Below, piece after piece: positions 943-9,321 of a DNA stretch of 9,321 nucleotides; positions within the stretch are counted from its first letter, which is position 1, and each line of letters begins with the position of its first letter. Position numbers and translations under genes: made by a program. Source of the DNA: a virus (lineage: Duplodnaviria; Heunggongvirae; Uroviricota; Caudoviricetes); the IMG/VR virus record IMGVR_UViG_2695420859_000017; one strand, 5' to 3'. The notes below the pieces were generated by a model. That model had not been told where the DNA came from, ran no database searches, and was given only the letters and a program-made list of their open reading frames with translations.

Positions 943-2715
943 ATGACCATCACCACAGACACCACTCTTTTACACGACCCGCGTCGTCAGGCGGCGCTGC
1001 TGTACTGGCAGGGGTTTTCCGTGCCGCAGATTGCCGCCATGTTGCAGATGAAACGCCCGACGGTGCAGAGCTGGAAACAGCGCGACGGCTGGGACAGCGT
1101 TGCCCCCATCAGCCGTGTCGAAATGAGCCTGGAAGCGCGGCTGACCCAGCTCATCATCAAACCGCAGAAAACCGGCGGTGACTTCAAGGAAATTGACCTG
1201 CTCGGACGCCAGATTGAACGACTGGCACGGGTAAACCGCTACAGTCAGACCGGCAACGAGGCAGACCTTAATCCGAACGTCGCTAACCGCAACAAAGGCG
1301 AGCGTCGCAAACCGAAAAAGAATTTTTTCAGTGACGAAGCCATCGAAAAGCTGGAGCAGATTTTCTTTGAGCAGTCTTTCGACTATCAGTTGCACTGGTA
1401 TCGCGCCGGGCTTGAGCACCGCATCCGCGATATACTGAAATCCCGCCAGATTGGCGCAACGTTTTATTTTTCCCGCGAGGCGCTGCTGCGCGCCCTGAAA
1501 ACCGGCCATAACCAGATTTTTCTGTCGGCCAGTAAAACGCAGGCGTATGTGTTCCGCGAATACATCATCGCCTTTGCCCGTCTGGTTGACGTTGACCTGA
1601 CCGGTGACCCGATTGTCCTGGGCAATAACGGCGCAAAACTAATTTTTCTCGGCACCAACTCCAACACCGCGCAGAGCCATAACGGCGACCTGTACGTCGA
1701 CGAGATTTTCTGGATCCCGAATTTTCAGGTACTGCGTAAGGTGGCATCAGGTATGGCCTCACAGAGTCACCTGCGCTCGACCTATTTCTCCACCCCGTCC
1801 ACGCTGGCGCACGACGCCTACCCGTTCTGGTCAGGTGAACTGTTCAACCGGGGACGCGCCAGCGCCGCCGAACGCGTGGAAATCGACGTCAGTCATAACG
1901 CCCTTGCCGGTGGTCTTCTCTGTGCGGACGGCCAGTGGCGGCAGATTGTCACCATTGAGGATGCCCTGAAAGGTGGCTGCACACTGTTCGACATTGAGCA
2001 GCTCAAACGTGAAAACAGCGCCGACGATTTTAAAAACCTGTTCATGTGTGAATTTGTTGACGACAAGGCGTCGGTGTTCCCGTTCGAGGAGCTGCAACGC
2101 TGCATGGTCGACACGCTGGAAGAATGGGAAGACTATGCGCCGTTTGCCGCCAATCCGTTCGGCTCACGTCCGGTATGGATTGGTTACGACCCGTCACACC
2201 GTGGCGACAGTGCCGGATGCGTGGTGCTGGCACCGCCGGTGGTGGCCGGTGGCAAATTCAGAATACTTGAGCGTCACCAGTGGAAAGGCATGGACTTTGC
2301 CACCCAGGCTGAATCCATCCGCAAACTCACCGAAAAATACAACGTCGAATACATCGGAATTGATGCCACCGGCCTCGGTGTCGGCGTGTTCCAGCTCGTT
2401 CGCTCGTTCTATCCCGCCGCGCGCGATATCCGCTACACGCCGGAAATGAAAACCGCAATGGTGCTCAAGGCAAAAGACGTTATTCGCCGTGGCTGTCTGG
2501 AATATGACGTCAGCGCCACCGACATCACCAGCTCGTTTATGGCTATCCGCAAGACCATGACCAGCAGCGGACGCAGCGCCACCTATGAGGCCAGCCGCAG
2601 CGAGGAAGCCAGCCACGCCGACCTCGCCTGGGCGACCATGCACGCCCTGTTAAATGAGCCACTCACCGCCGGTATCAGCACCCCGCTGACATCCACCATT
2701 CTGGAGTTTTACTGA
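943..2715 (+). CDS. P: Terminase large (ATPase) subunit GpP
   Basis: 590-codon ORF beginning MTITTDTTLLHDPRRQAALLYWQGFSVPQIAAMLQMKRPTVQSWKQRDGWD, recognised as P2-family GpP. ATG at 943 follows GAGG at 933..936; the ORF-track start at 913 is an upstream TTG and less likely. Stop TGA overlaps the next ATG (ATGA at 2715..2718). Confidence 0.9.
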   Translation: MTITTDTTLLHDPRRQAALLYWQGFSVPQIAAMLQMKRPTVQSWKQRDGWDSVAPISRVEMSLEARLTQLIIKPQKTGGDFKEIDLLGRQIERLARVNRYSQTGNEADLNPNVANRNKGERRKPKKNFFSDEAIEKLEQIFFEQSFDYQLHWYRAGLEHRIRDILKSRQIGATFYFSREALLRALKTGHNQIFLSASKTQAYVFREYIIAFARLVDVDLTGDPIVLGNNGAKLIFLGTNSNTAQSHNGDLYVDEIFWIPNFQVLRKVASGMASQSHLRSTYFSTPSTLAHDAYPFWSGELFNRGRASAAERVEIDVSHNALAGGLLCADGQWRQIVTIEDALKGGCTLFDIEQLKRENSADDFKNLFMCEFVDDKASVFPFEELQRCMVDTLEEWEDYAPFAANPFGSRPVWIGYDPSHRGDSAGCVVLAPPVVAGGKFRILERHQWKGMDFATQAESIRKLTEKYNVEYIGIDATGLGVGVFQLVRSFYPAARDIRYTPEMKTAMVLKAKDVIRRGCLEYDVSATDITSSFMAIRKTMTSSGRSATYEASRSEEASHADLAWATMHALLNEPLTAGISTPLTSTILEFY

Positions 2716-3872
2716 TGAGCAAGAAAAAAGGGAAAACACCGCAACCTGCGGCAAAAACAATGATCGCCAGCGCCCCGAAAATGGAGGCATTCACCTTTGG
2801 CGAGCCGGTACCGGTACTCGACCGCCGTGACATTCTTGATTACGTCGAATGCATCAGTAACGGCAGATGGTATGAGCCACCGGTCAGCTTTACCGGTCTG
2901 GCAAAAAGCCTGCGTGCCGCCGTGCATCACAGCTCCCCGATTTACGTCAAACGCAATATTCTGGCCTCGACATTTATCCCGCATCCGTGGCTTTCACAAC
3001 AGGATTTCAGCCGCTTTGTGCTGGATTTTCTGGTGTTCGGTAATGCGTTTCTGGAAAAGCGTTACAGCACCACCGGTAAGGTCATCAGACTGGAAACCTC
3101 ACCGGCAAAATATACCCGCCGTGGTGTGGAAGAGGATGTTTACTGGTGGGTGCCGTCCTTCAACGAGCCGACAGCCTTCACGCCCGGCTCCGTGTTTCAC
3201 CTGCTGGAGCCGGATATTAATCAGGAGCTGTACGGCCTGCCGGAATATCTCAGCGCCCTTAATTCTGCCTGGCTGAATGAGTCGGCCACGCTGTTTCGCC
3301 GCAAGTATTACGAAAACGGTGCTCATGCCGGATATATCATGTACGTCACTGATGCCGTGCAGGATCGCAACGATATCGAAATGCTTCGCGAAAACATGGT
3401 TAAGTCGAAAGGCCGCAACAACTTTAAAAATCTGTTTCTCTATGCCCCACAGGGGAAAGCCGACGGCATTAAAATTATCCCGCTCAGTGAAGTGGCAACG
3501 AAGGACGATTTTTTTAATATCAAAAAAGCCAGCGCCGCAGACCTGCTGGACGCGCACCGCATCCCTTTTCAGTTGATGGGCGGCAAGCCGGAGAACGTCG
3601 GGTCGCTGGGTGATATTGAGAAAGTGGCAAAGGTCTTTGTACGCCGTGGCTGTCTGGAATATGACGTCAGCGCCACCGACATCACCAGCTCGTTTATGGC
3701 TATCCGCAAGACCATGACCAGCAGCGGACGCAGCGCCACCTATGAGGCCAGCCGCAGCGAGGAAGCCAGCCACGCCGACCTCGCCTGGGCGACCATGCAC
3801 GCCCTGTTAAATGAGCCACTCACCGCCGGTATCAGCACCCCGCTGACATCCACCATTCTGGAGTTTTACTGA
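2715..3872 (+). pseudogene. Chimeric ORF: portal (GpQ) N-terminal ~309 codons fused in frame to a duplicated terminase C-terminal 76 codons
   Basis: Residues 1 to ~309 match the full portal copy at 4916..5935. From about nt 3642 the sequence shows no differences on visual comparison from terminase 2485..2715 (RRGCLEYDVSATDITSSFMAIRK...STILEFY), ending at a second copy of the P-stop/Q-start overlap. Confidence 0.55.
3642..3872 (+). repeat. Duplicate copy of the terminase 3' end (equals 2485..2715)
   Basis: Visual base-by-base comparison of 3642..3872 with 2485..2715 found no differences, including the terminal tactgATGagc junction. Confidence 0.8.
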
Positions 3873-4271
3873 TGAGCAAGAAAAAAGGGAAAACACCGCA
3901 ACCTGCGGCAAAAAAAATGACCGCCAGCACCCCGAAAATGGAGGCATTCACCTTTGGCGAGCCGGTGCCGGTACTCGACCGCCGTGACATTCTGGATTAC
4001 GTCGAATGCATCAGTAACGGCAGATGGTATGAGCCACCGGTCAGCTTTACCGGTCTGGCAAAAAGCCTGCGTGCTGCCGTGCATCACAGCTCACCGATTT
4101 ACGTCAAACGCAATATTCTGGCGTCGACATTTATCCCGCATCCGTGGCTTTCCCAGCAGGATTTCAGCCGCTTTGTGCTGGATTTTCTGGTGTTCGGTAA
4201 TGCGTTTCTGGAAAAGCGTTACAGCACCACCGGTAAAGTTATCAGGCTGGAAACCTCACCGGCAAAATATA
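3872..4271 (+). pseudogene. Portal (GpQ) 5' fragment, ~133 codons, diverged allele
   Basis: Begins MSKKKGKTPQPAAKKMTASTPKMEAF and tracks the portal to ...ETSPAKY. It differs from the other two copies by scattered single-base changes (KTMIASAP becomes KKMTASTP, plus apparently synonymous changes). After ~4271 the portal frame runs into unrelated sequence and stops at 4471. Confidence 0.55.
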
Positions 4272-4916
4272 TCGGTGTTCCCGTTCGAGGAGCTGCAACG
4301 CTGCATGGTCGACACGCTGGAAGAATGGGAAGACTATGCACCCTTTGCCGCCAATCCGTTCGGCTCCCGCCCGGTATGGATTGGTTACGACCCGTCACAC
4401 CGTGGCGACAGCGCCGGATGCGTGGTGCTGGCACCGCCGGTGGTGGCCGGTGGCAAATTCAGAATACTTGAGCGTCACCAGTGGAAAGGCATGGACTTTG
4501 CCACCCAGGCGGAATCCATCCGCAAACTCACCGAAAAATACAACGTCGAATACATCGGTATTGATGCCACCGGCCTCGGTGTCGGCGTGTTCCAGCTCGT
4601 GCGCTCGTTCTATCCTGCCGCGCGCGACATCCGCTACACGCCGGAAATGAAAACCGCAATGGTGCTCAAGGCAAAAGACGTTATCCGCCGTGGCTGTCTG
4701 GAATACGACGTCAGCGCCACCGACATCACCAGCTCGTTTATGGCTATCCGTAAGACCATGACCAGCAGCGGACGCAGCGCCACCTATGAGGCCAGCCGCA
4801 GCGAGGAAGCCAGCCACGCCGACCTCGCCTGGGCGACCATGCACGCCCTGTTAAATGAGCCACTCACCGCCGGTATCAGCACCCCGCTGACATCCACCAT
4901 TCTGGAGTTTTACTGA
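4272..4916 (+). pseudogene. Terminase (GpP) 3' fragment, ~214 codons, diverged allele, out of frame with the preceding portal fragment
   Basis: 4272..4916 corresponds to terminase 2071..2715 (VFPFEELQRCMVDTLEEWEDYAPFAANPF ... STILEFY) with several apparently synonymous single-base differences. It lies in a different frame from the portal fragment upstream; the ORF-track entry 3954..4916 is this frame reading backwards by chance. Confidence 0.55.
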
Positions 4917-5935
4917 TGAGCAAGAAAAAAGGGAAAACACCGCAACCTGCGGCAAAAACAATGATCGCCAGCGCCCCGAAAATGGAGGCATTCACCTTTG
5001 GCGAGCCGGTACCGGTACTCGACCGCCGTGACATTCTTGATTACGTCGAATGCATCAGTAACGGCAGATGGTATGAGCCACCGGTCAGCTTTACCGGTCT
5101 GGCAAAAAGCCTGCGTGCCGCCGTGCATCACAGCTCCCCGATTTACGTCAAACGCAATATTCTGGCCTCGACATTTATCCCGCATCCGTGGCTTTCACAA
5201 CAGGATTTCAGCCGCTTTGTGCTGGATTTTCTGGTGTTCGGTAATGCGTTTCTGGAAAAGCGTTACAGCACCACCGGTAAGGTCATCAGACTGGAAACCT
5301 CACCGGCAAAATATACCCGCCGTGGTGTGGAAGAGGATGTTTACTGGTGGGTGCCGTCCTTCAACGAGCCGACAGCCTTCGCGCCCGGCTCCGTGTTTCA
5401 CCTGCTGGAGCCGGATATTAATCAGGAACTGTACGGCCTGCCGGAATATCTCAGCGCCCTTAACTCTGCCTGGCTGAATGAGTCGGCCACGCTGTTCCGC
5501 CGCAAGTATTACGAAAATGGCGCACATGCCGGATACATCATGTACGTCACTGATGCCGTGCAGGACCGCAACGATATCGAAATGCTTCGCGAAAACATGG
5601 TCAAGTCGAAAGGCCGCAACAACTTTAAAAATCTGTTTCTCTATGCCCCACAGGGAAAAGCCGACGGCATTAAAATTATCCCGCTCAGTGAAGTGGCGAC
5701 GAAGGACGATTTTTTTAATATCAAAAAAGCCAGCGCGGAAGATCTAATGAGTGCCCATCGAGTCCCCCCGCAAATGATGGGGATGATGCCTAATAATGCG
5801 GGAGGATTTGGCGATGTAGTTAAAGCGGCTAAAGTTTTTGTCAGGAATGAGTTAGGGCATCTACAATCGCGAATGAAGGAATTGAACTCATGGATAGGTG
5901 AAACAGTTATAACATTTAACAATTACTCGTTATAA
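4916..5935 (+). CDS. Q: Portal protein GpQ, full length (339 aa), with a diverged AT-rich 3' end
   Basis: ORF starting MSKKKGKTPQPAAKTMIASAPKMEAFTFGEPVPVLDRRDILDYVECISNGRWYEPP, recognised as the P2-family portal. ATG overlaps the stop of the preceding terminase-derived segment. It is the only copy with a portal-type C-terminus and stop. Confidence 0.85.
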   Translation: MSKKKGKTPQPAAKTMIASAPKMEAFTFGEPVPVLDRRDILDYVECISNGRWYEPPVSFTGLAKSLRAAVHHSSPIYVKRNILASTFIPHPWLSQQDFSRFVLDFLVFGNAFLEKRYSTTGKVIRLETSPAKYTRRGVEEDVYWWVPSFNEPTAFAPGSVFHLLEPDINQELYGLPEYLSALNSAWLNESATLFRRKYYENGAHAGYIMYVTDAVQDRNDIEMLRENMVKSKGRNNFKNLFLYAPQGKADGIKIIPLSEVATKDDFFNIKKASAEDLMSAHRVPPQMMGMMPNNAGGFGDVVKAAKVFVRNELGHLQSRMKELNSWIGETVITFNNYSL

Positions 5936-5941
5936 ACCCTG

Positions 5942-5965
5942 CAGGCTTTGGCTCACCAAAGCCTG
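5942..5965. terminator. Hairpin between the convergent portal gene and the cargo operon (10-bp perfect stem CAGGCTTTGG / CCAAAGCCTG, 4-nt loop)
   Basis: Seen directly. Lies in the 35-bp gap between the Q stop (5935) and the minus-strand stop at 5971. No strong T-tract on either side, so intrinsic-terminator strength is uncertain. Confidence 0.45.
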
Positions 5966-5970
5966 TAAGA

Positions 5971-6588
5971 TCAAGCAGATAGGCAAAACGTTTCTGTTTG
6001 CCCCAAGTGTTCAAACACAGTAATCGATGTTACTTTTCCGGCACTTATTTTGTTAAGGAACTTCAATATTTGTTGAGGCTCCTCCATGACTGCTGTTTTC
6101 TTGATTATAAATCCCTCAAGATTTTTCAAGCTGTATCGCTGACTTGAGTTCTCAAGAGCAGCAATCATTGCCGAACTGCGCATATCTCTATGTCCACTAG
6201 CTCTACAAACGACAGCATAATTTAAATTAAGCTCTACAAAATTTTGCCTTGTCAACTCTGGAAGGTGTTTACATACAAAATGAAATAAAGTCGTAACACC
6301 TTCATGTATTTTCAACCTTATATCATCCTTTTGTGAACGTCCTTCTTTAAATTCAATGAAGTACAATTTATCTTCATATAAAAATAAAGCATCCGGTGAT
6401 TTTTCTTTAAACTCACGCTTATAAACAGGCGAGCAATTTAACACCGTATCATAGTTAAAGCCCTTCGAATCACAAATAATAAAATTCCGAGCCCCTGCAT
6501 CATTGTAGCTTAATCCGGTTACATCAACCATTGAATCAGGGTATACTTCACACAGTTTTCTAAAAACAAGTTCCTCATTAGAAATCAT
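5971..6588 (-). CDS. Hypothetical 205-aa protein, second gene of the cargo operon; family not recognised; possible PD-(D/E)xK-like nuclease motifs
   Basis: ATG at 6586..6588 is preceded by AGGAG (reverse complement of 6596..6600) at 7-nt spacing and overlaps the upstream gene by 11 nt (ATGATTTCTAA). Strongly AT-rich. Contains FIICD (res 36-40) and LFLYEDK / FIEFK (res 68-81), which could be PD-(D/E)xK motifs II and III; this is inference only. Confidence 0.7.
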   Translation of the reverse strand: MISNEELVFRKLCEVYPDSMVDVTGLSYNDAGARNFIICDSKGFNYDTVLNCSPVYKREFKEKSPDALFLYEDKLYFIEFKEGRSQKDDIRLKIHEGVTTLFHFVCKHLPELTRQNFVELNLNYAVVCRASGHRDMRSSAMIAALENSSQRYSLKNLEGFIIKKTAVMEEPQQILKFLNKISAGKVTSITVFEHLGQTETFCLSA

Positions 6589-7906
6589 CCAAATACTCCT
6601 GATTCAATTCTTTTAATGGTGATGCCAAAAGATTAATTGCATATGCAACATTATCAGTAATATCAACAAAAGATGTAAACTCTTCCCCAGGGAATCGCTC
6701 GCTTATATAGAACCGATTTTCAATCCCAATTTTATCGCTATAATGTTTAAGAGCATCAATAATATACGGGCTATGTGTTGTAATTATTATATCAACCCCC
6801 ATAGACACTAACTCACAAATAATCTCAGCATAGAAAACCTGCCATTTTGGATGTAAGTTCACCTCTGGCTCATCAATAATCAGTAACGAGTTATCTACTG
6901 CTGCCCCGCACTTAACAAGCATATCAAGAATACCTAAAGACTTTATTCCTGACGCAATATTACCCGATGTGACTTTATAGCCTTGCTTCTCTAGAAAAAA
7001 ATCATTCTTTTCAATATCATAAACCACTTCACCACAGAAAGTAGCATTGATTTTGTTAGATATACGCAGTGACTCTTTTAAAAATGAGCCATCATCAAAA
7101 ATATCCGAATGCACAAATAAATTATAAACTGAATCGCTTAATTTTATTGATAGATCTTTCACATGCAATGGAACAGTTAGACGTCCTGATTCACCATTAC
7201 TATCAAATAAAGTTTTAGCAAAACGAACCAAATTATGAAATTGCATAATACTTGGAGAGTCAACATAGGTTGCGTCGACATATCCTAAGCCATCAGTATA
7301 ATCAAATTGTGATATACCATCTTTAGTCCATTTAATATCAATTAACTGACTAACACCATCAACAACTTCCAGAGATGCTTTAACTGGATTTTGATTACCC
7401 TTCTGAATAATTTCGCCTCTAAATTCAGAGTAAAAGGCCTTACGCAGAGCACGGTTGATAGCAGATAGCTCATCATCTGGCTCAAGCATTATATCTCTGA
7501 TTTTTCTTATATCAGAGAGTACAGAATCAGCCATCAATTCTGGAAGAAGCCCTTCCTCAATCAAATTATATAGATAACTCTCTCTCTCAGCCAAAGTTTT
7601 AGAGATATCTATTTTTAGAGAGGCATAAAACTTTCTTGGATTGAATAACTCTCTAATTTCCGGCGTAGCAGCAATATTAATCCTCCTACGCAGATTAAAA
7701 TATATTTTCTCTACGATAGATGTAATTCTATCCTCTTTGTCTTCTTCTAAATCCTCTTGATAACGAGATATCGCCTTTACCATTGAAAACAATATTTTCC
7801 CTACGGTACTCTTCCCCGTATCATTTTCACCAGTTATGACAGTTAAACCACCAACTGAAACATCAGCTTCTGCAATAGTTCCAAAATTATTAATTTTTAT
7901 ACGCAT
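6578..7906 (-). CDS. OLD/ABC-family (AAA_15/AAA_21-like) ATPase, 442 aa, with no Toprim or other nuclease domain
   Basis: N-terminal Walker A GENDTGKST (nt 7805..7831), C-terminal Walker B LLIIDEPE (nt 6863..6886) and H-loop TTHSP (nt 6767..6781), with ~300 residues between the Walker motifs. This layout is typical of OLD/GajA/AriA/PtuA-type ATPases. Spot counts of 60-nt lines give roughly 27-30% GC against about 60% in the structural genes. Confidence 0.8.
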   Translation of the reverse strand: MRIKINNFGTIAEADVSVGGLTVITGENDTGKSTVGKILFSMVKAISRYQEDLEEDKEDRITSIVEKIYFNLRRRINIAATPEIRELFNPRKFYASLKIDISKTLAERESYLYNLIEEGLLPELMADSVLSDIRKIRDIMLEPDDELSAINRALRKAFYSEFRGEIIQKGNQNPVKASLEVVDGVSQLIDIKWTKDGISQFDYTDGLGYVDATYVDSPSIMQFHNLVRFAKTLFDSNGESGRLTVPLHVKDLSIKLSDSVYNLFVHSDIFDDGSFLKESLRISNKINATFCGEVVYDIEKNDFFLEKQGYKVTSGNIASGIKSLGILDMLVKCGAAVDNSLLIIDEPEVNLHPKWQVFYAEIICELVSMGVDIIITTHSPYIIDALKHYSDKIGIENRFYISERFPGEEFTSFVDITDNVAYAINLLASPLKELNQEYLDDF

Positions 7907-7946
7907 AAACTATCTCACTGTACGCCAGATATCCAACCTTATGAAT

Positions 7947-7975
7947 ACTTTAGCATATTTCCAAAAAGATGACAC
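7947..7975 (-). promoter_or_regulatory. Candidate sigma70 promoter for the cargo operon (GTGTCA-N17-TAAAGT with a TG extended -10)
   Basis: Read on the minus strand between cos and the ATPase start codon. A 4/6 match at -35 and TGnTAAAGT at -10 would leave a ~40-nt 5' UTR. Pattern match by eye only. Confidence 0.25.
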
Positions 7976-7999
7976 TGGTGGTTGCAGGCCTCGCGCGCA

Positions 8000-8018
8000 G
8001 TGCTTTCCCCGCCTCGCC
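8000..8018 (-). other. cos: cos site: 19-nt cohesive-end sequence identical to P2 (GGCGAGGCGGGGAAAGCAC on the minus strand)
   Basis: Reverse complement of 8000..8018 is GGCGAGGCGGGGAAAGCAC, followed by CTGCGCGC, matching my recollection of the P2 left end. It sits in a GC-rich block, in the expected neighbourhood of the portal gene. Confidence 0.75.
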
Positions 8019-8112
8019 CGCCCGCTTCACGGGGCGGTTTTAATGCAGTTGCATAGATACTATGGATCCGCACCAGTCCTGACCGCACGCAGCCTGAACG
8101 GACATCCCCAGC

Positions 8113-8141
8113 GCATGCAAAAACATTCACTGGTTGCATGC
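8113..8141. other. Inverted repeat GCATGCAA-N13-TTGCATGC followed by CTTTTT
   Basis: Seen directly, ~100 bp from cos. Could be a protein-binding site or a weak terminator. Confidence 0.2.
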
Positions 8142-8302
8142 ATAGCTTTTTAAGTACGCCATACCGCAACTGTACATTTTTAAGCAATTGGCAACTTTAA
8201 AAAATTTACATTGCTTTCAAGACCTTATCATCCGTAGTCTCTGTTTTTTACTTTGAGCTACATCAATAAAATCTCAAACATGTTTAATGCAAAGCCCTTG
8301 TT

Positions 8303-8356
8303 ACACAACATAGAATGTATGTCTAGAAACAACGACATACTATATGTTGTGTTTTT
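8303..8356 (+). other. Long imperfect hairpin (arms ACACAACATAGAATGTATGTC / GACATACTATATGTTGTGT, 10-nt loop) followed by a T-run; terminator-like or sRNA 3' end
   Basis: Seen directly: 10-bp and 7-bp perfect stem segments separated by a small internal loop, then TTTTT at 8352..8356. An A-tract is lacking on the other side, so orientation is plus. Confidence 0.4.
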
Positions 8357-8418
8357 CCGGCTCTCTGTTCGGTGATATGCCAAATCACTTTGCGTTTAAA
8401 CAGAGCATTATTTCAGGG

Positions 8419-8433
8419 CAAGACTTCGCTCAA
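8419..8433 (+). repeat. 15-bp direct repeat CAAGACTTCGCTCAA, copy 1
   Basis: Exact 15-mer found again at 8683..8697; the two copies bracket the small ORF and its terminator. Confidence 0.5.
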
Positions 8434-8496
8434 AAGTCATTCCACCTAAGAAGCGCATATACCGGTGGAAGTTGCCCTCTACTTACAGGAGGCAAT

Positions 8497-8610
8497 ATGA
8501 AGAAATGCTATTACTGCATTCTCGTTCTGGCCCTCTTTGGCTATCCAAACGGTAGTCCGAGTGGTTTGTCAGTAAACGTCAGTAATATCAATGTCAGCAT
8601 TATGCTTTAA
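8497..8610 (+). CDS. Small hydrophobic peptide, 37 aa (MKKCYYCILVLALFGYPNGSPSGLSVNVSNINVSIML); function unknown
   Basis: ATG at 8497 is preceded by a consensus AGGAGG at 8487..8492 (4-nt spacing). Stop at 8608..8610 is followed 13 nt later by a strong intrinsic terminator. The N-terminus is KK followed by a ~13-residue hydrophobic stretch. Short length keeps confidence low. Confidence 0.35.
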   Translation: MKKCYYCILVLALFGYPNGSPSGLSVNVSNINVSIML

Positions 8611-8622
8611 TATGCTTCAAAC

Positions 8623-8652
8623 AAAAAAACCACCTGCCAGGGTGGTTTTTTT
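8623..8652. terminator. Rho-independent terminator, bidirectional form (AAAAAAACCACC-TGCCAG-GGTGGTTTTTTT)
   Basis: Seen directly: perfect GC-containing stem with a 6-nt loop, A-tract upstream and T7 downstream. Confidence 0.8.
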
Positions 8653-8682
8653 GCGCCCATCATCAATACGATGAAAGACTGA

Positions 8683-8697
8683 CAAGACTTCGCTCAA
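8683..8697 (+). repeat. 15-bp direct repeat CAAGACTTCGCTCAA, copy 2
   Basis: Identical to 8419..8433; AAGACT-like motifs also occur at 8675..8680 and 8696..8700. Confidence 0.5.
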
Positions 8698-8912
8698 GAC
8701 GAATTATGCGTCGACATAAGGTTACCCGCAATGATTTTATTAGACTAAATGGATGGCCTTTTATGACCCGGATCAAACGGCTGTCCTTACCGACATGCTA
8801 GTCACTCAATAGCATTTAGCCTTCTAATTCAGCATGCTATTGACCTTCTGCTGCCCCATAACTGCTCCGCATAAGCCATTCAATGCCATATCAAATCACG
8901 TTGTGTTTTTAC

Positions 8913-9321
8913 TCAAATGGGTAACGAGAACCCCGGCCACTCATCAGCAACCGGATACGTGAATTTTTTCCCGTCATAATTTACGGTCGCGCCACGCGCC
9001 AGCGCCTCAAGCTCCCATCGTTGCGGCCTGATACCGTTCTGAGCGAGGTCAACGCGGATACGGGTAATTTGCAATCGTTCAGACCTGGTCAGTCTGGCAG
9101 ATGGTGCAATTTCATGCGGTTTTAACGGGATTCCGTTTCTTTGCTGACGATTTGGTGTTCTCAGTCCGTGTTTTAATGCGCCCCTGAGCACCATCACTAC
9201 CTCCGGGTCACTCCATTCGATAACACCGTCATCTACCAGATTAAGCACTGCTGCGGCGTGCTCAGAAGGTGTGGGAGCCGGTAACGAAGTATCACCACCG
9301 GTGAGCTTTCCACAGTTATTG
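8913..9321 (-). CDS. Phage protein, 3' portion only (gene starts beyond the window end); probably the last gene of the early/replication operon
   Basis: The minus-strand frame is open from the window edge (…TGGDTSLPAPTPSEHAAAVLNLVDDGVIEWSDPEV…) to TGA at 8913..8915. The ORF-track start at 9248 is an internal GTG. GC content is backbone-like. Product assignment is positional inference only. Confidence 0.55.
   Translation of the reverse strand, partial: NNCGKLTGGDTSLPAPTPSEHAAAVLNLVDDGVIEWSDPEVVMVLRGALKHGLRTPNRQQRNGIPLKPHEIAPSARLTRSERLQITRIRVDLAQNGIRPQRWELEALARGATVNYDGKKFTYPVADEWPGFSLPI

Follow-up and report, generated by a model that had tools for sequence, protein, structure and literature searches.

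An exact P2-type cos site and a cargo module in the known cos-to-portal slot of a P2-like Escherichia coli prophage

The DNA addressed here, a stretch of 9,321 bp referred to as the window, corresponds to the whole of contig CYER01000057.1 from the draft assembly GCA_001283965.1. Within this stretch, the sequence at positions 7993-8147 is very probably the intact cos site of a P2-like (Peduovirus) Escherichia coli prophage, with a cargo module occupying the known slot between cosL and the portal gene in such a way that packaging would be undisturbed. This reading draws on sequence identity, on the pattern of conservation seen in related elements, on gene content and on the occurrence of the same region in complete prophages. 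Both the site and the hotspot around it are already known; the slot has been described as a location of foreign DNA since 1996.

The reverse complement of positions 8000-8018, GGCGAGGCGGGGAAAGCAC, exactly matches the 19-nt cohesive end of phage P2, annotated as cosL (positions 1-19) and cosR in NC_001895, thus placing cosN on the minus strand of the window. The cos region was compared by aligning the window with the circularized P2, 186 and P4 genomes and by considering 120 IMG/VR loci containing the exact 19-mer. Identity to P2 was found to be contiguous over 55 of 55 bp at 7993..8047 (minus strand), corresponding to positions -29..+7 in the P2 orientation. At the sequence level, this run fits the 55-bp core common to P2 and P4 that is credited, in passages of PMC5694545 and PMC9594776, to Ziermann and Calendar (1990). 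Among 114 unique flanks, only the block spanning -35..+7 was strongly conserved. The original prediction of an exact P2-type cos site was thus confirmed, both by the full match of the 19-mer upon alignment to the reference P2 site and by the identical 55-bp run. The idea that the 19-mer had been encountered by chance can be dismissed, since GGCGAGGCGGGGAAAGCAC yielded a single match in the window at three or fewer mismatches, with 0.01 matches being expected per dinucleotide-preserving shuffle, and since the match lies within 55 contiguous P2-identical bases and in a syntenic context.

By analogy with P2, the terminase (gpM and gpP) would recognize the right arm of the site together with the 55-bp core and would cleave the window cos by introducing nicks 19 nt apart, thereby leaving 5' overhangs of 19 nt in virion DNA. 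Based on the P2 annotation, these staggered nicks are predicted to fall at 8018/8019 on the minus strand of the window and at 7999/8000 on the plus strand. A terminator-like hairpin overlapping cos (8018-8037) was also considered and rejected, as this sequence folds no better than does shuffled sequence (z -0.46); covariation at these positions, judged by eye, likewise offered no support for such a structure.

Examination of the remainder of the window, which is oriented opposite to the P2 map, revealed a gene on the plus strand encoding the terminase large subunit (gpP homolog; 943..2715; 590 aa, with Terminase_5, Terminase_6N and Terminase_6C domains), followed on the same strand by a portal gene (gpQ homolog; 4916..5935; 339 aa, with a Pfam Phage_portal domain and 91% identity to P2 gpQ). 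On the minus strand lies the 3' end of a replication endonuclease gene (gpA homolog; 8913..9321), the frame of which is open to the end of the contig and runs off that end. The genes bordering cos follow the P2 order, gpA lying to one side of the site and gpQ, gpP and gpO to the other. This gene context refutes the proposal that the site belongs to a P4-like satellite or is an isolated cos remnant, a proposal that retains next to no credibility even though the same 19-mer, with cargo beginning at +8, also occurs in P4-like satellites.

The portal gene stop codon lies 2064 bp from cos, as compared to 167 bp in P2. The cargo DNA found in between contains 31-39% GC (~2.06 kb at 35%), as opposed to 52-60% in the phage backbone, in agreement with the earlier description of some 2 kb of AT-rich cargo separating the portal gene from cos. 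On the other side, the gpA stop codon is 907 bp from cos, the shortest gpA-to-cos spacing among 56 loci. Thus, whereas P2 carries its own cargo (old and tin) on the gpA side of cos, the element in the window carries cargo on the portal side, together with a minimal 907-bp spacer towards gpA. The ~770 bp of DNA that extend from the right arm to the gpA stop codon (8148-8912) are also AT-rich and contain no annotated gene in the RefSeq record of E. coli BUCT2930. An 88-aa ORF in this region (8344-8610, plus strand) showed no family match, while an Rfam scan of 5900-9321 returned only sub-threshold matches, including near 8596-8707.

Positions 5900-9321 of the window were found at 99.9-100% identity in seven complete E. 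coli chromosomes; strains BUCT2930 (NZ_CP059723) and 600468 (NZ_CP025849) are examples of carriers of the identical module. In the one of these genomes that was examined, namely that of BUCT2930, the region is contained within a P2-like prophage of ~32 kb situated between pflA and pflB, in which the P2 genes are complete from int to ogr and none is flagged as a pseudogene. The presence of this complete prophage bears out the earlier proposal that an internal cos points to a prophage or circular form and not to a packaged genome end; cos lies inside the window because the element is an integrated P2-like prophage.

The junction between the end of the terminase gene and the start of the portal gene appears three times within 2071-5736 of the window, with 2071-3535 resembling 4272-5736, and 3626-4271 resembling both 2469-3114 and 4670-5315 (97-98% identity). 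The two odd junctions coincide exactly with positions 3641 and 4271, scaffold joins (3641..4271) that are the only positions given as N in the public record of CYER01000057.1 and that read as A in the window. Because the novel junctions fall exactly on these N positions, the triplication was considered to be a scaffolding artifact. A real tandem duplication that would mark a defective prophage was rejected, given that the junctions are the N positions and that the copies differ by 2-3%. No triplication was found in the best 15 matching complete E. coli genomes, with each match covering only ~3.6-3.9 kb of the genome record for a query of 6.1 kb. The joins hence connect overlapping, slightly different contigs and give no indication that the prophage is rearranged or defective. 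The draft genome that served as source probably holds several P2-like prophages.

Mapping of the conserved positions around cos, for which alignment to P2 and 186 had earlier been suggested, revealed conservation among the compared loci to comprise the -35..+7 core and a series of right-arm repeats, all of which are intact in the window. The right arm, corresponding to the P2 right-end side and presumed to be the region recognized by the terminase, spans 8019..8147 (minus strand) and contains TGCAT/ATGCA repeats at 8043-8047, 8050-8054, 8115-8119 and 8135-8143. In cos coordinates, these pentamers are found at -125, -124, -121, -101, -36 and -29, the same kind of placement as seen in 111 unique loci. 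Across these P2-like and P4-like loci, TGCAT/ATGCA occurred at ~0.9-1.2 copies per 10-bp bin at -130..-101 and at 0.6-0.95 copies per bin at -40..-21, as compared to a background of ~0.02 per bin elsewhere, including the whole left arm. A typical right-end side accordingly contains some three copies within -130..-100, plus one or two more within -36..-25. On the basis of this repeat criterion, which was derived in the present analysis and not from the literature, the pentamers are candidate terminase binding repeats, and terminase recognition would lie within 7993-8147, mostly outside the interval originally highlighted (7907-8018). Disruption of the flanking packaging signals, which had been named as the observation that would argue against a working site, was not seen on the 8019-8147 side, where the position-conserved signals are intact.

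When compared to the P2 site in NC_001895, the window cos thus shares the 19-mer, the -29..+7 core, the position between gpA and gpQ, and the presence of TGCAT repeats in the right arm. By contrast, beyond -30 the right arm is only ~75% alike and is nearer to those of other Peduovirus isolates. Overall, the right arm shows 96-97% identity to the ends of the sequenced Peduovirus genomes MET_P1_103_31 and VB-YPM-4, as opposed to 75-79% for P2 and 186. The left arm of the window is unrelated to that of P2 beyond +7.

Indeed, homology with other P2-like phages ends 7 bp to the left of the cut, at 7992/7993, directly after the sequence TGCGCGC. The first cargo ATG is found at 7906 on the minus strand, such that 93 bp (7907-7999) separate this codon from the bottom-strand cut. 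As such, the original estimate that cargo lies ~90 bp from cos holds for the start codon but not for the break in homology, which is only 7 bp from the cut. Judged by sequence, the 93 bp before the cut are the leader of the cargo module itself; the segment at 7907..7992 (minus strand) showed no relation to P2, 186 or P4, homology with P2-like elements stopping at 7993. This leader probably holds the promoter of the cargo genes, although a scan of the 93 bp for sigma-70 promoters returned none above threshold.

The same +7/+8 boundary was noted in P4, in eight other IMG/VR loci with portal-side cargo and in P4-like satellites; in the alignment, the P4 left arm is unrelated to that of P2 beyond +7. 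Given how general this boundary is, its presence in the window is not a sign of damage. The suggestion that the cargo may encroach on sequences recognized by the terminase was accordingly not upheld, since the core is identical to that of P2, the conserved right-arm elements are all present and the +8 boundary is shared by other elements. The cargo would not disturb packaging because everything that the terminase likely needs lies from +7 rightwards.

A semi-conserved element was, however, detected in the left arm of some elements. This consists of a T-tract followed by CTGAGCGCGTC near +39 (about +25..+52) and was present in 13 of 37 left-flank types. Carriers include P2, some P4-like satellites and the loci L006, L017, L024, L025, L040, L064 and L109; a similar sequence was seen by eye, but not scored, in 186. 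The element is absent from the corresponding positions of the window (7941-7975) and from 23 other left-flank types, and no locus in which cargo directly adjoins cos retains it. This sequence may have an accessory role or may simply be ancestral, and its absence here means that a quantitative effect on packaging is possible.

An alternative interpretation would hold that, by removing this accessory element, the cargo insertion damaged cos, leaving a prophage that is defective or poorly packaged. In line with such damage, the left arm beyond +7 has been wholly replaced, the T-tract and CTGAGCGCGTC shared by P2 and some P4-like elements, and found in similar form in 186, are missing, and no entry in the phage collection was found to contain the cargo. 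Still, P4, which is packaged by the P2 terminase (PMC9122126), lacks that left-arm homology, and 24 of the 37 left-flank types lack the motif. Moreover, phiCTX remains viable despite the cargo that it carries in this slot, the BUCT2930 prophage containing the cassette has a complete gene set, and the cassette has been retained at this position in E. coli and, at 61% protein identity, in Pectobacterium, a distribution that is hard to square with dead elements. Damage to cos was hence considered unlikely, and an intact site beside a tolerated cargo module remains the favored explanation.

The position of this module is in keeping with what is known of P2-like phages. Located between cosL and the portal gene, the slot is described, in passages of PMC5694545 and PMC6868368 that cite Dodd and Egan (1996) and Nakayama (1999), as a site where foreign genes are picked up. 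In the case of retrons Ec86 and Ec67, the DNA replaced is that from cos to the packaging-gene terminator (PMC6868368; PMC7826664). The gpA-gpQ interval around cos serves as the defense hotspot in P2-like phages (PMC9122126, by Rousset et al., 2022; PMC13586616). The latter two sources treat gpA-gpQ as a single hotspot, without separating the two sides of cos. The window shares with this hotspot its locus and low-GC, defense-like cargo, as well as an exact protein pair. The arrangement 'AAA_15/AAA_15/AAA_21 + hypothetical', comprising WP_001220547 and WP_000624949, is given in the supplementary tables of PMC9122126, and the same two proteins are those annotated at the corresponding position of BUCT2930. 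Within the searched text and supplements of that study, the pair is mentioned only in the list of arrangements, outside the systems said to have been tested.

A portal gene was identifiable in 93 of the IMG/VR loci. A short, P2-like spacer (200 bp or less) separates it from cos in 85 of these, and in the other eight the intervening DNA measures 0.9-3.2 kb. In all eight long-spacer loci, different sequence starts right after the conserved 7-bp block, which reads CGCGCTC in L102 and TGCGCGC in the others. Different cargo was found in this same slot in seven elements with the exact 19-mer (L023, L027, L032, L056, L097, L102 and L103), the respective loci together containing a PDC-S02-like gene, DRT2, a gene for a 545-aa protein, genes for two small proteins, an Avs5-like gene, PD-T4-4 A and B, and genes for a type IV retron reverse transcriptase and a membrane protein. 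Of these portal-side cargos, DRT2, the Avs5-like gene, PD-T4-4, the retron reverse transcriptase and PDC-S02 are recognized defense genes. Because the slot is already known to collect such genes, the placement of cargo beside cos is an ordinary arrangement.

Sequenced phages offer further examples. In phiCTX, ctx lies between cosL and Q in the same layout, and in vB_EcoM-613R3 the slot is occupied by a CDS encoding 334 aa. The slot used in the window is likewise that of retrons Ec67 and Ec86 (Dodd and Egan, 1996), of ctx in phiCTX (Nakayama, 1999) and of ORF1-4 in phiRSY1. The parallel with phiCTX extends to gene order, with cos being followed by cargo transcribed away from cos, a terminator or hairpin and a convergent portal gene. 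In contrast to Ec67/Ec86, phiCTX and phiRSY1, the window contains a different cargo, and the replacement also takes in some 65 codons at the end of the portal gene.

These codons constitute a variant, AT-richer portal 3' end (5737..5935, plus strand) that travels with the cargo and marks the left recombination boundary. In the listed genomes without the cargo, the match to the window ends inside the portal gene, at 5736-5745. Correspondingly, the first 274 residues of the portal protein are nearly identical to those of P2 gpQ, with divergence occurring entirely after residue 274. Because the portal tail resembles the portal protein of a Pectobacterium P2-like prophage carrying the same cassette, the portal 3' end was considered to be part of the cargo module. 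Between the convergent portal and cargo genes lies a hairpin (5942..5965) with a perfect 10-bp stem and a 4-nt loop, for which folding energies of -19.7 and -21.4 kcal/mol were calculated (z -5.6 and -4.8). Despite having no canonical U-run, this hairpin is probably a bidirectional terminator that replaces tQ of P2.

The module in the cosL-to-portal slot thus spans ~5737-7992 and comprises the portal 3' end, the hairpin, a gene encoding a 205-aa protein, an ATPase gene and the 93-bp leader. Given where the portal match ends, the divergence from gpQ after residue 274, the Pectobacterium-like tail and the hairpin between the two genes, the module most likely arrived through a recombinational swap, for which the conserved cos core would have provided one anchor and the portal gene the other.

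Transcription of both cargo genes leads away from cos, in the direction of the portal gene. The first (6578..7906, minus strand) encodes a 442-aa ABC-type ATPase of the OLD/AriA/PtuA-like kind, with matches to Pfam AAA_15 (7e-19) and AAA_21 (1.7e-18). This protein is identical to WP_001220547, belongs to phrog_14430 and yielded sequence matches in the PDB that include an OLD-family nuclease, AriA and PtuA. Its best PADLOC matches were HEC-02A and PD-T4-4_A, with HEC-02A being the higher scoring; the match to PD-T4-4_A (E 1.7e-30) has its best stretch over residues 274-384 only.

The second gene (5971..6588, minus strand) overlaps the first by 11 nt and encodes the 205-aa protein, for which no Pfam or PADLOC match was obtained and for which a PDB sequence search with the family profile returned nothing meaningful. 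Residues D66, E79 and K81 are invariant in this family. The structure model of the protein is confident (pLDDT 84.5), and its predicted fold resembles those of PD-(D/E)xK nucleases, not Toprim. As such, the 205-aa protein is probably a PD-(D/E)xK nuclease effector. Two other assignments were considered and rejected. The possibility that the protein is a PD-T4-4_B homolog was dropped, given an hhalign probability of 0.2 against a bona fide PD-T4-4_B from L102 and the absence of a PADLOC match. Likewise, assignment to PARIS was not accepted, as the protein has no Pfam domain, DUF4435/Toprim included, and its fold is not that of Toprim.

The two genes remain together, and overlapping, in three other contexts. 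In Pectobacterium P2-like prophages, a cassette with 61% identity at the protein level occupies the same cos-to-portal slot beside a different cos sequence (L130, 4683-6618). In Vibrio cholerae, a homologous cassette is found within an array of small cassette genes (L132, 1980-3861), and in Pseudomonas it lies beside a Tn5-like transposase (L134, 4698-6606).

The cargo is most likely a two-gene anti-phage system, predicted to combine an ATPase sensor with a nuclease effector. Like PD-T4-4, PARIS AriA/AriB, Septu PtuA/PtuB and Gabija GajA, it has an AAA_15/AAA_21-type ATPase gene (~440 aa) with a small effector gene downstream that overlaps it, and it shares with them carriage in phage hotspots, true PD-T4-4 filling the same slot in L102. 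The window ATPase, however, resembles those of PD-T4-4, PARIS, Septu and Gabija only in the shared ABC motifs, and its 205-aa partner, unlike those of PD-T4-4, PARIS and Septu, has no detectable homology to PD-T4-4_B, to DUF4435/Toprim or to HNH partners. It is tentatively proposed, at something short of even confidence, that the pair represents a distinct, uncharacterized two-gene anti-phage system with an effector family lying outside Pfam and PADLOC 2.0 and, secondarily, that loss of the left-arm element in cargo-bearing variants may carry a packaging cost.

The significance of these findings is mainly one of annotation, in that the contig carries a P2-like prophage with what is very probably an intact packaging site. 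At the level of cos anatomy, the comparison points to a conserved core at -35..+7 accompanied by TGCAT repeats reaching to about -130, with no conservation beyond +7, thereby placing the functional cos mostly to the right of the interval that had first drawn attention. The sole item worth experiment is the cassette encoding the ATPase and its nuclease-like partner.
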